DNA of 63,848 nt, counting the filler, from Collodictyon triciliatum (lineage: Eukaryota), in assembly GCA_043381765.1 (NCBI GenBank). It is 4 parts of 4 records of this genome, joined end to end, with 100 filler letters (N's around TTAATTAATTAA, not from the genome) between each part and the next. Parts side by side here need not be neighbours in the genome. Positions count along the whole stretch, not along the records: positions 14,986 to 30,113 come from JBHJMP010000949.1; 3 more parts are not named here. One strand, given 5' to 3'. The position numbers and the translations under genes are program-made. Shown one piece after another: positions 17,758-26,379 of the stretch. Positions within the stretch are counted from its first letter, which is position 1; every line of letters begins with the position of its first letter. The notes under the pieces are model-generated. The model did not search any database and was not told the origin of the DNA. It saw nothing but the letters and a program-made list of their open reading frames with translations.

Positions 17758-18090
17758 TCATTGGCTGCTGCGGACGAAGTAGACCGATCCTGCGCGGGTT
17801 TCTGTGCGGGTGTCGAACGGGGCAGCGACAAGAGCGTTTTTTCCGGCAACAGCAACGTCGAAGCCGAAGCCGTCGGAGCCGTCTGATGAGCCCAACGCAA
17901 AGCGCTGCTGCTGAGTCCATCGGCCGTCGTGCTTGGTGAAGAGATATGCCGAGCCTGTGGGGAATGCAGATGCGCACGAGGGCGAGACGGAGTCAAGGTA
18001 GACGGGTTGTCAGCAAAGGGAAGAAAGAAAGGAAGGAAGGAAAAGATATCAGTCGTAAAGAATGTAATCTGAATGGCCTTCTTTTTTTTG

Positions 18091-18163
<73 letters not shown>

Positions 18164-21100: not shown

Positions 21101-24100
21101 CTTCCAGAAAAAATCATGGAGCTATCAGGCGAAACAGACACAGACAAAATAGCGCTATGGTGTCCATTCAAAGTTTTTATCAAACTTCCAGTGTTCAAAT
21201 TCCAAACTTTAAGTTTGCCGTCATAGCTACCTGATATTACCTTTGAATCATCCAGAGTAATTGCGACACTCGATATGGCATTTGTATGACCTTTCCACGT
21301 GGACACCAAAGAGCCGTCCAGATGATTCCAAATCTTTATGGTGTTGTCGTTTCCCCCGGAGACAATTTTTGCTCCATCCGAAGTGATTGCAACCGTGTAA
21401 ACGTAGCTCGTGTGTCCTGTCAATGTGCGAATCAAAGTTGCATCTGAGAGGTTCCATATTTTAACTGTATAATCCCAGCTGCCTGAGATGGCTTTTGAAT
21501 CATCGGATGCAACAACCACAGAGCTCACAATTTCAGTATGTCCGATCAGAGAGCTGACAAGTGCCCCATCATATGTGCTCCATATTTTGATTTCGCTATT
21601 GTCGCCACCAGATAGAAGCTTTGATCCGTCACGAGTGCTGGATAAGGCGCGAATTTCTCGTTGGTGTCCATGCTGTGGACGACTAAGGTACTCTGATGAA
21701 AGGTGCCAAAACTTTATGCTATTGTCGGATGCGCCTGAGGCCATCAATGAACTATCATAGTTGACTGCAATACTATTTACGGATTCTGTGTGACTTTTAA
21801 TAATGACAAAGTGCTCGTTTTTATCGGATATGTCCCACAGGATTATACTCTTATCGTCACTCCCGGAAATGATTTTTAATCCGTCAGAAGTCACAACAAC
21901 GTCATTTACTGAAGAAAGATGCCCTTTCAAAGTGCGAGAAAATGAACTATCAAATATATTCCATACCTTTAATGTTTTATCTCCACTCCCAGATATTATT
22001 TTCGAGCCATCAGGAGTAACTGCTACGCTGTTGACCGATGATGTATGGCCAACTAAAGTACGAATCAGCTCACCCCCAGACAGACTCCATAGCTTGACAG
22101 TTTTATCTTCACTTCCAGATACAATTTTTGAGCCATCAGGAGTAACAGCTACAGTTTTTACCGATGATGTATGACCAGATAGGGTGCGAACCAATTCACC
22201 TCTTGGGAAGCTCCAAATTTTCACTGTTTTGTCTGCACTTCCAGAAATTATTCTTGAATCATCAGGATTCAAAGCTGTACTTGTGACGTATCCAGTGTGT
22301 CCATTTATCGTCGTGAGTAAGCCGCCGTCAACTATATTCCAGATTTTTATTGACATGTCATCGCTTCCTGAGACAATTTTTGATCCGTCAGAGGTGACTG
22401 CGACACAATTGACGTAGTAGTTATGACCTATGAGTTTACGAATCAGTGTCCCGTTTTGAGAGCTCCAAATTTTGATTTCGTTATCATAGCCTGCTGATAC
22501 AACTTTAGACCCATCGGGGGTGAATACTAAATCTCTGGCGTCGACTAACGCTCCTCCGAGAGTAGAAGAAAGTATGGAGTAAGATATGTATCTGAATTTA
22601 ACTGTGAGGTCATCACCTCCTGAAATCACCTTGGCACCATCCGGAGAGACCGTGACGCTGTTGACTGAACCTGTGTGGTCGCTTATTGTTCGAAGGAGCT
22701 CGCGTTTATTCATGTCCCATATTTTAACGGTGTTGTCATAGCTACCAGATATTATATTGGACCCATCTGGGGTGACAGCTACAGTCGCTACGTAATGGGA
22801 ATGTCCTGACAGAGTGCTAATCAATGCCCCATTTGAAAGATTCCATACTCTAATGGTAAAGTCGTAGCTTCCCGAAACAATCTTTGAGCCATCAGGGGTT
22901 ACTGTCACAGCCACTACGCCCTCATTATGTCCTGTTAGAGTACGTAATAGGGTTCCGTCCGCAATGTTCCACAGCTTTATTGAATAATCATGACTTCCAG
23001 AGACGATTTTGGAGCCGTCAGGTGTTATGGCAACACTCGTGACGTAATGGGAATGTCCTGTTAATGTGCGCAATAGAACTCCGTCAGAACGATTCCATAT
23101 CTTGATTGAATAGTCAATGCTTCCAGAAACGATTTTGGAATCATCAGGTGTTATGGCAACACTCATGACGTAATGGTAATGTCCTGTTAATGTGCGCAAT
23201 AGAGCTCCGTCCGCAATATTCCACAGCTTGATTGAATAGTCATGGCTTCCCGATACGATTGTCGAACCGTCACTGGTGACGGAGAGAGATGAAACGGTGT
23301 TTGTATGACCAAGGATACTTCTAATCAAGTCTCCATTTGTTGCATTCCAAACTTTTATAGATGAGTCGCTACTACCCGTCACTACATATAGTCCATCAGG
23401 AGTTATCACAATGTCTTGCACATAATTTGTGTGGCCAGTAAATGTCAATACTGACTGTCTTTTTTGGGACAGGGACCACACCTTGATAGTATTATCTGAA
23501 CTACCGGAGAACATTTTTGAATTTCCTATTGCAAATAAAACTGCGTTGACTGAGCCTCGATGCTCGTTGAACGTACCAACCAAACTCCCGTCAGAAATAT
23601 ACCACAATTTTATCGTAGCGTCGTTGCTTCCAGAAGCAACCATAGAGCCATCCAGGGAAATGGATACGCTTCGGACAGAGCTAGAATGACCTGCTAATGT
23701 GCGAACTAAACTTCCATCGGAAAAATTCCAAATTTTGACAGTGCTGTCACTTCCACCAGATACTAATGTTGAACCATCAGGTGTCATAGAAACACTGTTT
23801 ATTGATGAAGAGTGCCCATAAATTGTTCGAATTAACGCCCCATCGGCAAAGGTCCAGATTCTAATTGTGCTATCATGGCCTCCAGAAATTATATATCTTC
23901 CATCAAGGCTGACTGAGACGACAGCAATATAGCCTGAATGCCCGTATAGAGTGCGAATCCAGCTCCCATCCGAAAGATTCCAAATCTTAATTGTGCTATC
24001 ATAGCTACCAGAGATAATATTCAAGCCATCAGGAGAAACAACTACGCTGTAGATATGATTTGTATGAGCATCTATTGTAAGAATCGAACTTCCGTCAGAA

Positions 24101-26379
24101 TGATTCCATACTTTGATGTAGTAGTAATAGTAGTAGTACCAGCCGTAATAATAATAGTAATACGACCCAGAAACAATTTTGCTGTTGTCAGGAGTGAAAG
24201 TAACACTCGTGAAGTAGTTAGGCGAATCGTTAATAGTTCGTATTAAACTCCCATCTATGGAGTTACGAACAGTGATTGTGGTATCAGTACCAACAGAAAC
24301 AAGCTTAGAACCATCTGGACTCAAGGACATACTTTGAATATTGCTGGAGTGTCCACTGAACGATGCGACAGAATGGTCATCTGTAAAATCCCAAACTTTC
24401 AGTGTGTTGTCAAAGCTCCCAGTTACTAATCTTGTCCCATCATGGGTTGCAACGACTGTTGATATATTTTTAGAATGTGCTTCGGTGTCCAAGATCAATT
24501 GACCGTCTGAGAAAAGCCAGCCTTTGATGGCGGTGTTGTTGCCACAAGCAATAATTTTCGCATCATCTGGAGTTAAAGCTATACTACTAATCTCAAAATT
24601 GTTGTTAATGGAGCGCACTAGGGAACCGTCATGCAAATTCCATATCTTGATGGTCTTGTCAGTACTTGCAGAGATTATTCTAGAGCTTTCCGAAGATATG
24701 GAAATACCCTTTACATAGTGGTCATGTCCTGTCAATGTGCGAATCAATTGGCCGTTGAAAAAATTCCATACCTTGATTGTTTTATCGTCACTTCCCGACA
24801 CTATTTTGGAGCCATCTGGTGTCACCAAAACAACATTGACAGGTTCTCTGTGGCTATTCAGTGTCATATTGAGGGAACCCCCCGCAAAATTCCAGATTTT
24901 GACGGTTTTATCGAAACTGCCCGAAACTATCTTCGAGCCATCGGGGGTCACAAAGACAGATGACACACAGTCCAAATGTCCTGCCAAAGTGGCAATCAAC
25001 ACTCCATCAATAAGATTCCAAATTTTAATTGTTCTGTCAGAACTTCCTGTAACGAAGTTGGAATCATCAGGGCTTAACGAGATGGAAAGAATGGAGCTGC
25101 TGTGTGCAACAAATTTTTGCATTAGCTTTCCTTTAGATAAGTCCCAGATTCTGATTTTGGTATCCAAACTTCCAGAGATCATTGTGGTGCCATCAGAAGT
25201 GATATCTAGCGAGAGGATGGGAGTGTCAGGTTCCCCGACAGTGACAGAATTTCTAATCTCTCCGTGAATTAATGGCCAAGTTATAATGACCTGGTCCTCG
25301 CCACCAGAAACAATTTTTGAGCTGTCAGAAGAAATAGAAATACTTTGAACGGCTTGAGTGTGCCCAACAAGCGTGCGAACTAATGTGCCCTCCGAGATAT
25401 TCCATAATTTGATAGTCTTGTCAGATGATCCCGAAATTATCGTGGAACCATCCAGGGTGGTGATGACTTTATTGATTGCATCAGTATGCCCATGCAACGC
25501 GCGAGTTAAACCCCCATCAGAAAGGCTCCACACTCTAATAGTTTTGTCAGCACCTCCAGAAATAACTTGCGAGCCATCAGGGCTGGAAATAACACTGTTT
25601 ACACCTTTTTCGTGTCCTTGAAGTGTTCGAACCAAACTTCCATCCGAGATAGTCCAAATTTTGATTGTCGTATCATCACTTCCTGAAATGATATTTCTTC
25701 CGTCAGGTGTCACATAAAGGGTTGAAACTTCACCAGAATGCCCCGTCAAGGTTCGGATCAGAGTCGAGTTTGGAAAACTCCAGATTTTGATGGATCTATC
25801 GCTACTTCCAGAAACTATGGTTGAGCCGTCAGGAGTAATGGCAACACTGTTCACCACCTTCGTGTGCCCTTTTAGGATGTGAAGCAGCGCCCCATCAGAC
25901 ATGTTCCATATTGAAATGGTGCCGTCTTTGTTACCAGAGACAATTCCTGAGCCATCTGGTGTAACAACGAGGGCCTTGGTTGAAGTGGATTGTTCAGACA
26001 GAGTTTGAATCCATTTTCCATCAAGAAAGTTCCATAACTTGATCCCACCGTTTTGGCATCCGGAAACAATTTTCGAATCATCTGGAGTGATTGCAAGGCT
26101 AGTTACGGCCCCAGGACTCGAAATGGTGTAGATCGGGTCGCCTCCCAAGGTGCCGAATATTTGCCAGCTTGCAAAAAGCACTACGCACCGTATTTTTTAT
26201 CTAATTACAAGCTATCTCAACATATTCATTAACATCTATAAAAAAAAAAAAAGGAATCAAGGCCCATTTTATATTTCGGCAGTATGGACTGATACGATCA
26301 GGATGGGGGCAAACAGAATTTAATCGCAATTACAAGCAAGGTATATTGCCGATTCCTTTGAGCCTCGGCGCAATCCCAT
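17758..26379 (-). CDS. Giant predicted secreted protein (~2,738 aa): signal peptide, 53 WD40 repeats, basic linker, 7-bladed FG-GAP (integrin-alpha-like) propeller. Exons 26379-26334, 26180-18207, 17954-17758
   Basis: The 7,974-bp open exon is made of GH...W repeats. The upstream exon joins in phase (T|GTAATT...CGTAG|TG) to give MGLRRGSKESAIYLALLFASWQIFGTLG. The downstream intron (G|GTATGT...CACAG|GC) removes the TTG repeat and adds GSAYLF...DGFGFDVAVAGKNALVAAPFD...AGSVYFVRSSQ*, the seventh FG-GAP blade. Confidence 0.9.
18091..18162. repeat. (AAC)n microsatellite in the last intron of the WD40/FG-GAP gene
   Basis: Directly visible; lies between donor 18206 and acceptor 17955. Confidence 0.95.

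Follow-up and report, generated by a model that had tools for sequence, protein, structure and literature searches.

A Collodictyon triciliatum gene predicted to join a leader and 53 WD40 repeats to a C-terminal FG-GAP_2 propeller

The gene described here occupies positions 17758-26379, on the minus strand, of a 63,848-nucleotide (nt) stretch of DNA from Collodictyon triciliatum (GenBank assembly GCA_043381765.1). This stretch, hereafter the window, consists of four parts of four records joined end to end, with 100 filler letters between each part and the next, and the gene lies in the part that comes from JBHJMP010000949.1 (positions 14,986 to 30,113). The eukaryotic character of the window shows in its microsatellites, AT-rich spacers and spliceosomal-type introns. 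Few interaction domains are commoner in eukaryotes than WD40 propellers, which are treated there as intracellular scaffolds. We show herein that the locus is a real, intact three-exon eukaryotic gene. Its predicted product would open with a hydrophobic leader, continue with 53 WD40 repeats and a basic linker, and close with a seven-bladed FG-GAP_2 propeller. This protein is probably secreted or surface-bound.

Gene structure and the WD40 array

A stop-free frame of 2,715 codons, a length that cannot arise at random, runs from 26196 to 18049 on the minus strand. Joined to a small exon on either side, it yields a coding sequence of 46 + 7,974 + 197 nt, which is a multiple of three, ends in a single terminal stop and encodes 2,738 amino acids (aa). 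Both introns are of the GT-AG type, and the exon phases are compatible and keep the frame (Table 1). The original prediction for this locus had proposed these same splice coordinates for two small exons and an 8-kb open reading frame (ORF), together with an N-terminal hydrophobic leader, 53 WD40 repeats whose linker departs from its usual pattern after every seventh, seven FG-GAP blades completed by the last exon, and no transmembrane anchor; all of these points stood up to the analysis.

At the 5' end, exon 1 encodes the n-region of the leader and the start of its hydrophobic core, and an in-frame stop lies 8 codons 5' of the ATG at 26379. The first Met within exon 2 falls in WD40 repeat 3, and the intact repeats 1 and 2 therefore need an upstream start. 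Upstream ATG-exon candidates in a compatible phase number 33, only three of which have a usable donor: the exon at 26379-26334 and two that share the donor at 26844, the products of which are also hydrophobic. At the 3' end, the comparison involves four Trinity transcripts of Diphylleia rotans from EukProt (P0231, P0274, P0270 and P0321) and a relative from short metagenomic contigs (P0213). The transcripts cross the predicted exon 2/exon 3 junction uninterrupted, without the intron 2 insert, and exon 3 aligns with the C-termini of all four. At the junction, P0274 reads CSTRGAAYVFTKEAKNW, and the present gene reads CSTKG at the end of exon 2 and SAYLFTKHDGRW at the beginning of exon 3. P0213 terminates exactly at the end of exon 2. 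Because the D. rotans transcripts run through the junction, the predicted exon 2/exon 3 splice has good comparative support. Intron 2 contains a perfect 24-copy AAC/GTT microsatellite (18091-18163; (GTT)24 on the coding strand).

A single uninterrupted frame, free of N runs, takes in the WD40 array, the linker and the C-terminal domain; of the eight N runs in the window, 1,161 N in all, none falls within the gene. Identity between repeats is 62% at codon positions 1 and 2 vs 35%, near random, at position 3, a clear mark of selection acting on the protein. The GC content of third codon positions (GC3) is 0.40 in the WD40 array, increases to 0.52 in the linker and C-terminal domain of exon 2 and reaches 0.69 in exon 3; in the neighbouring genes GC3 is 0.44-0.71. 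The gradient is a weak hint that the two halves of the gene have separate histories.

The number of WD40 units was obtained in two ways. Splitting the protein at the repeat motif gave 55 pieces, two of which were false splits, leaving 53 units. A hidden Markov model (HMM) built from the 45 regular units likewise found 53 units in the protein, and a six-frame scan of the whole window with it also returned 53, all in this ORF. These 45 units are exactly 42 aa long and the others 41-44 aa, with two exceptions: unit 1, which includes the leader, and unit 16, which carries a 15-residue insert. Pfam PF00400 scored 1411 bits against a cut-off of 27, in 50 stretches. The structural tetrad is kept in the regular units (His in 42/45, Ser in 43/45, Asp in 44/45 and Trp in 42/45), and variation between units is concentrated at positions 12, 15-17, 19, 35 and 37. 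The Tyr-rich insert of unit 16 takes the place of the tight turn of the blade; since TAT and TAC codons are mixed in it, it is not a pure microsatellite or the product of simple slippage.

The array also has a period of seven. The mean similarity of the inter-repeat linkers to their consensus is 15.1 after units 7, 14, ..., 49, and the means of the six remaining phases are 29.9-52.6. Linkers 1-6, for example, score 27-57, and the one that follows unit 7 has a score of 1. Seven randomly drawn linkers were equally low in 7/100,000 draws (permutation p = 7e-5, to be multiplied by about 7 because the phase was chosen after looking). This pattern fits an array of seven putative 7-bladed propellers with four spare blades, and four blades are unable to close a ring on their own.

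The units share a mean identity of 43% at the amino acid level and 53% at the nucleotide level, and units 24 and 25 are the only pair to reach 86% nucleotide identity. Tandem Repeats Finder reported only three short stretches of period 126, with 76-82% matches, one of them at 22927-23272. Duplication of whole propellers as blocks was considered and rejected, identity at a lag of seven units (0.449, amino acids) being no higher than at neighbouring lags. Judging from the divergence of its units, the array is old and kept by selection on the protein, rather than a rapidly homogenised sensor array.

Table 1. Coordinates of the gene and of the parts of its predicted product
Feature	Position in the window	Strand	Remarks
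Exon 1	26334..26379	-	46 nt; ATG 26379-26377; first 15 codons and one base; donor GTAATT
Intron 1	26181..26333	-	153 nt; GTAATT...GCGTAG; 33% GC; predicted from sequence alone
Exon 2	18207..26180	-	7,974 nt
Exon 2 start, rest of leader LLFASWQIFGTLG	26143..26180	-	reaches the proposed cleavage region, between TLG and GD
WD40 units 1-7, proposed propeller 1	25276..26142	-	motif split, linker pattern
WD40 units 8-14, proposed propeller 2	24391..25275	-	motif split, linker pattern
WD40 units 15-21, proposed propeller 3	23476..24390	-	motif split, linker pattern
Tyr-rich insert YYYYYYGWYYYYYYY in unit 16	24118-24162	-	15 residues: six Tyr, Gly-Trp, seven Tyr
WD40 units 22-28, proposed propeller 4	22591..23475	-	holds the youngest duplicates, units 24/25
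WD40 units 29-35, proposed propeller 5	21706..22590	-	linker pattern
WD40 units 36-42, proposed propeller 6	20824..21705	-	linker pattern
WD40 units 43-49, proposed propeller 7	19942..20823	-	linker pattern
WD40 units 50-53, four supernumerary blades	19438..19941	-	motif split, linker pattern
Basic Ser/Arg/Lys-rich linker	19129..19437	-	103 aa; S 27, R 13, K 12; K+R 25 vs D+E 4
FG-GAP_2 blades 1-6	18207..19128	-	PF14312 4.6e-13; one Cys pair in blade 1, the other immediately ahead of the exon end
Intron 2	17955..18206	-	252 nt; GTATGT...CCCACAG; ends CCCCACAG
Exon 3	17758..17954	-	197 nt; end of blade 6, blade 7, stop codon 17760-17758

The C-terminal propeller and its relatives

The array is followed by the basic linker, in which furin-type R-x-K/R-R sites were looked for and none was found, and then by seven FG-type blades of 44-58 aa, six encoded by exon 2 and the seventh by exon 3. 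Pfam PF14312 (FG-GAP_2) matches the exon 2 part with 49.6 bits (4.6e-13) and exon 3 with 35.1 bits (1.5e-8), above a cut-off of 23. Four Cys columns, kept in 7/8 aligned sequences, make up two close C-x5-8-C pairs, one in blade 1 and the other just before blade 7.

When the exon 2 part of the domain was scanned against 1.84 billion representative proteins, 23,010 matches were obtained at E <= 0.001, most of them giant bacterial FG-GAP_2 proteins matched piecewise. Matches over the whole domain in a single stretch were confined to a small group: P0213 (37% identity) and the four D. rotans transcripts (24-30%). A metagenome scan with P0213 as the query gave no match. The large proteins that match the FG-GAP part bear cadherin, fibronectin-III, laminin-G-type or Ig-like domains in Pfam.

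The D. rotans sequences P0270, P0274, P0321/P0359 and P0231 correspond to the EukProt EP00002 transcripts P015509-12, P033879, P021121-24 and P026413. Diphyllatea (CRuMs) are described in the available text of PMC11603278 as heterotrophic protists, with isolates from freshwater crater lakes. Like the present protein, the D. rotans proteins carry a seven-bladed FG-GAP_2 propeller at the very C-terminus with the two conserved Cys pairs, and all five full C-termini end right after blade 7. They also have a Ser-rich linker before this propeller that is often rich in Arg and Lys, P0321 having a long Ser/Arg/Lys run. The layout of P0270, P0274 and P0321 is a hydrophobic leader, an FG-GAP_2 propeller, a Ser-rich linker and the C-terminal propeller. 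These proteins differ from the present one in that they are only 693-894 aa long and have an FG-GAP_2 head and no WD40 repeats, whereas the head here is the 53-unit WD40 array; an FG-GAP_2 head propeller was not found at the N-terminus of the present protein, where the head is WD40 only. In this small lineage-specific family, seen in D. rotans, it is the linker and the C-terminal propeller that stay constant. The family sits in a deep-branching protist lineage, the CRuMs relatives of Diphylleia, that has been little studied and whose surface and prey-contact molecules are almost uncharacterised, and the shared module points to modular surface proteins with exchangeable heads.

Each half of the protein has precedents. 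The original prediction held that the architecture as a whole was unrecorded, and nothing in the searches contradicted it: no protein combining WD40 and FG-GAP_2 was confirmed among 468 listed matches that were re-screened (228 to FG-GAP_2 and 240 to WD40), although absence is not proven in this way, since only listed matches were re-screened. The 228 comprised 87 large proteins that match the linker and FG-GAP part and 141 further FG-GAP matches, among which no WD40 unit was confirmed, and no FG-GAP blade was found in the 240 WD40 matches. Two candidates were rejected: P0313, flagged as WD40 + FG-GAP by the HMMs, has only FG-GAP_2 and HYR in Pfam, and P0058 lists PF25171, yet its sequence is of the FG-GAP type. 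The Atlas returned WD40-only or FG-GAP-only clusters, with scores <= 0.86, and no mixed cluster, and the literature search found no paper describing a protein with a leader, WD40 repeats and FG-GAP blades. In a metagenome scan, the N-terminal 99 aa matched four distant WD40 loci (29-36% identity), with no orthologue or complementary DNA; in a search for near-identical N-termini, the 120 matches listed were long multi-repeat proteins, which outrank short exact matches. Thus, among the matches re-screened, WD40 and FG-GAP_2 appear here as a new domain combination.

Location of the protein and competing readings

The leader is a hydrophobic segment of 28 aa with repeat 1 directly after it. It contains three basic residues and one acidic residue (n-region +2), a 14-residue core, a Gly/Thr-rich end and small residues at -1 and -3. 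Its best 10-residue hydropathy, 2.2, passes a crude and unspecific leader rule based on hydropathy. The exon 2 portion of the leader is hydrophobic and contiguous with the WD40 frame under every choice of first exon. Outside the leader, the 19-residue windows peak at a mean Kyte-Doolittle value of 1.67, in WD40 or FG-GAP strands, and the C-terminus is polar. Entry into the secretory pathway has indirect support: leaders occur in the relatives, both Cys pairs have been kept, the FG-GAP_2 partners are of the cadherin and fibronectin-III type, the exon 2 part of the leader is hydrophobic, and giant WD40 arrays of Planctomycetota likewise begin with signal-like leaders. Such entry, whether the protein ends up secreted, on the surface or anchored by its N-terminus, has about two chances in three.

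The specific proposal, to which we give an even chance, is a secreted or surface protein made from a three-exon gene by way of a cleavable leader, with a string of WD40 propellers and a docking FG-GAP_2 module. We infer the 5' exon, the cleavage of the leader, the location, the docking role of the C-terminus and the binding role of the WD40 repeats. The leader would take the chain into the endoplasmic reticulum and be cleaved, and the protein would end outside the cell or on its surface. There, seven tetrad-stabilised WD40 propellers, each with its own variable face residues, would form a long multivalent binding string. The basic Ser/Arg/Lys linker would serve as a flexible spacer, and the disulfide-stapled, integrin-alpha-like FG-GAP_2 propeller would close the protein. 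The constant linker and C-terminal propeller may dock it to a partner shared by the family, e.g., the cell surface or a coat; what varies is the N-terminal head, which in the relatives is an FG-GAP_2 propeller and here a WD40 array. The four blades left over may remain unclosed or associate with a second chain. Prey capture, coat formation and sensing, the functions originally suggested, are guesses.

Several observations weigh against this proposal. The core of the leader, at 2.2, is weaker than those of the Diphylleia relatives P0270, P0274 and P0321, at 3.4-3.7, and 26/75 (35%) of unrelated WD40 matches also pass the crude hydropathy rule. N-glycosylation sequons are not enriched, 19 being observed vs 28.6 +/- 4.5 in shuffled sequences. 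Arg/Ser-rich linkers are also typical of nuclear proteins, and canonical eukaryotic WD40 domains are, to our knowledge, nearly all cytosolic or nuclear. The intron 1 acceptor has a poor pyrimidine tract, and exon 1, like any expression of the gene, is predicted from sequence. Among sequencing runs, one, whose kind was guessed to be RNA, contained 0.30 of the sampled words of the gene, and three freshwater metatranscriptome runs contained 0.12, 0.07 and 0.05; these shares do not count as evidence of expression, splicing or habitat. Since the searches turned up no relative that combines WD40 and FG-GAP_2 in this way, comparison does not support the fusion. The fold of the four spare blades is putative, and docking and binding are wholly inferred roles. 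The extracellular location claimed by the original prediction stood on indirect grounds only: it gained from the C-terminal module, which is common to leader-bearing Diphylleia proteins and keeps its Cys pairs, and lost by the weaker leader.

Much of the above would suit a giant cytosolic scaffold, in which the 5' exon is mis-modelled or the leader non-functional and the FG-GAP_2 propeller works inside the cell: the overwhelmingly intracellular habit of eukaryotic WD40 proteins, the moderate hydrophobicity of the leader, the number of sequons, the RS-like linker and the predictive basis of exon 1. It would then be no more than a WD40 scaffold of unusual size whose C-terminal domain is odd. Against this reading, repeats 1 and 2 need an upstream start, every model places hydrophobic residues immediately ahead of repeat 1, and both the leader-bearing proteins that share the Cys-paired module and the extracellular-type domains that accompany FG-GAP_2 in large proteins speak for the outside of the cell. 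We regard a cytosolic scaffold as rather unlikely. Quite unlikely, too, is an uncleaved signal anchor, which would make a type II membrane protein tethered by its N-terminus, with the WD40 array and the FG-GAP_2 propeller outside the cell. The leader could act in this manner because 20 consecutive uncharged residues (S10-G29) follow its positive n-region; moreover, the alternative first exon at 26904-26844 would give an even longer uncharged N-terminus, and the protein has no other anchor. Yet the strongly hydrophobic core spans only about 14 residues and includes Tyr, Ser, Trp and Gln, the small residues at -1 and -3 (TLG before G) suit a cleavage site, and the leaders of the Diphylleia relatives are short and classical, with AQT or TQT at their end.

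Two further readings concern the gene rather than the place of its product. It is very unlikely that the locus is a silent or decaying gene, be it a recent transfer or an unexpressed fusion relic, or an assembly artefact that joins two genes. The differences in GC3 along the gene and the want of an orthologue of the fusion in the searches would agree with such an origin, whereas the uninterrupted 2,715-codon frame, its continuity without N runs from the array to the C-terminal domain, the codon pattern of purifying selection and the tetrad kept in 42-44 of 45 units argue against it. The other reading is prompted by the gene upstream on the same strand, 2-3.7 kb away (28266-29862, minus strand, ATG at 29862), which has a RING finger (several zf-RING families, E ~1e-6), Cys/His-rich exons of TRAF-type appearance and coiled-coil exons, with introns of ~90 nt that start GTAAGA. 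TRAF7 has the order RING, TRAF zinc finger, coiled coil, WD40, and splicing from these exons into the array would give a TRAF7-like E3 ligase. Such a fusion is scarcely credible and was excluded: the coiled-coil exon ends in an in-frame TGA overlapping AATAAA (28271-28266; both signals together, 28273-28266), a separate gene for a 108-aa DUF2905-like protein intervenes (ATG at 27961, stop at 27635-27637), no domain is present in 26642-27493, and it would be senseless for such a ligase to have a hydrophobic segment immediately ahead of repeat 1.

The wider bearing of the preferred reading, that of a secreted or surface protein, depends on the leader. If it is true, the passage of 53 WD40 repeats along a eukaryotic secretory route would extend the range of uses known for the fold, and the hydrogen-bond-stabilised 'prokaryotic-type' WD40 blade would work extracellularly in eukaryotes. 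Bolder, and doubtful though possible, is the idea that this free-living protist displays canonical WD40 propellers extracellularly, seven and a half on a single chain, by way of a bacterial-style exported array fused to a lineage-specific dock (basic linker and disulfide-stapled FG-GAP_2 propeller) that elsewhere bears FG-GAP heads. The result would be a modular family of surface or secreted binding proteins with exchangeable heads, in which the spare blades of two chains could pair into a shared eight-bladed ring. In the available text of PMC6327176, the designed four-blade WD40 protein Ika4 forms eight-bladed rings, and its sibling Tako4 could not be expressed.

Other features of the window are as follows. 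The intervening 108-aa gene (27635-27961, minus strand) matches DUF2905 in its C-terminal half (PF11146, 4.2e-7), which is unusual in a eukaryotic locus, as DUF2905 is a family of small bacterial membrane proteins. In the spacer just 5' of the WD40/FG-GAP gene, an A-rich heptamer, which reads TTGTTTT on the plus strand, is repeated in a long array of 27.7 copies (26461-26650). Directly downstream, a Ser/Pro/Asp-rich frame of 306 codons (16710-17630, minus strand; GC3 0.71, no Pfam match, first Met at ~17579) starts only ~180 nt past the stop codon of the WD40 gene, so that the spacing of genes is compact. Further away, a GC-rich (0.56) open frame at 5899-7161 (minus strand) has a PH domain near its C-terminus (1.3e-6), and a single-exon open frame of 701 codons at 56482-58587 (plus strand) has an NHL repeat (1.4e-15) and matches to SGL/lactonase-type propellers; no leader was seen at its first Met, and it is unrelated to the WD40/FG-GAP gene. 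Two long N runs account for the apparent ORFs that occupy every one of the six frames around 43 kb and 48 kb.

Comparison with known proteins

STAND-type proteins, i.e., fungal HET-E, HET-R and NWD proteins and cyanobacterial proteins with NACHT, NB-ARC or TIR domains and WD40 repeats, have the repeats most similar to the present ones among the matches listed (29-49% local identity), and the named repeat matches include HET-R, NACHT, NB-ARC and TIR proteins. They carry an N-terminal nucleoside triphosphatase (NTPase) or effector domain, which the present protein does not have. For the ORF, Pfam showed 25 families, every one of a WD40 or propeller type. Room for an NTPase is also wanting, because repeat 1 begins after just 28 residues and no domain lies in the 1.25 kb upstream; an upstream NACHT, TIR or kinase exon, named in the original prediction as an example of a finding that would speak against it, was likewise absent from the upstream ORFs (26642-27493). 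STAND sensor arrays are highly self-similar, and the present array is not, a single pair of its units standing out from a low mean identity. The analogy drawn earlier to the highly self-similar NWD/HET-E and STAND arrays therefore fails, and membership in that class was rejected.

The closest solved structure by sequence is PDB 2YMU, that of the Nostoc punctiforme protein Npun_R6612, which matches units 43-53 with 807 bits (E 5e-242). In the available text of PMC5587647, 2YMU is a 14-repeat WD40 protein that forms two propellers, so that tandem sets of seven fold separately. It differs from the present protein in having 14 repeats rather than 53, and in being without the leader, the linker and the FG-GAP module. 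The C-terminal domain has its counterpart in the extracellular propellers of integrin alpha chains, which are also seven-bladed and of the FG-GAP type. With the family-alignment profile, integrin alpha-M (4.4e-8) and alpha-E (1.5e-3) were the only kinds of solved protein matched (7 sequences). This relationship is very distant, as the best profile match fell on the N-terminal propeller of the Diphylleia rows and not on the present domain, and the integrin legs (thigh and calf), transmembrane helix and beta-subunit context have no equivalent in the present protein. For extracellular WD40 folds in eukaryotes, the plant receptor kinase CRINKLY4 can be likened by description only: it has a single propeller in its ectodomain, described as an extracellular WD40 domain in the accessible portion of bioRxiv 10.1101/2020.08.10.245050.

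A likeness in overall layout is seen in arrays of Planctomycetota. A search with the WD40 array among proteins of 1,490-4,743 aa gave 2,281 matches at E <= 1e-100, 120 of which were listed. Thirty-seven of these 120 cover at least 90% of the array (2,127-3,582 aa, 22-26% identity). Among the 37, 34 begin with Met, and 27/34 pass the crude leader rule vs 26/75 of the other matches; by eye, many of the 37 have a classical signal peptide followed at once by the first repeat. The named members are proteins of Pirellulaceae and of Planctomycetia metagenome-assembled genomes (e.g., MGI8977634.1 of Pirellulaceae and MCE9603506.1 of Planctomycetia; here P0383, P0376 and P0362). The notion that leader-bearing WD40 arrays were without precedent was thus too strong. 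WD40 repeats are enriched in Planctomycetes according to the available text of PMC5587647, in which the stems 'secret-' and 'periplasm-' are never used. The arrays of Planctomycetota differ from the present one in being bacterial and intronless and in having a conserved tail of their own instead of the basic linker and FG-GAP_2 propeller, and the entries are uncharacterised. Like the present array, they have a signal-like leader directly before WD40 units that fill nearly the whole of a 2,100-3,000-aa protein. The unit HMM finds 28-57 units in them, from near the N-terminus to near the end, and they align over 90-99% of the present array. At such low identity, the likeness shown is one of repeat type and layout.

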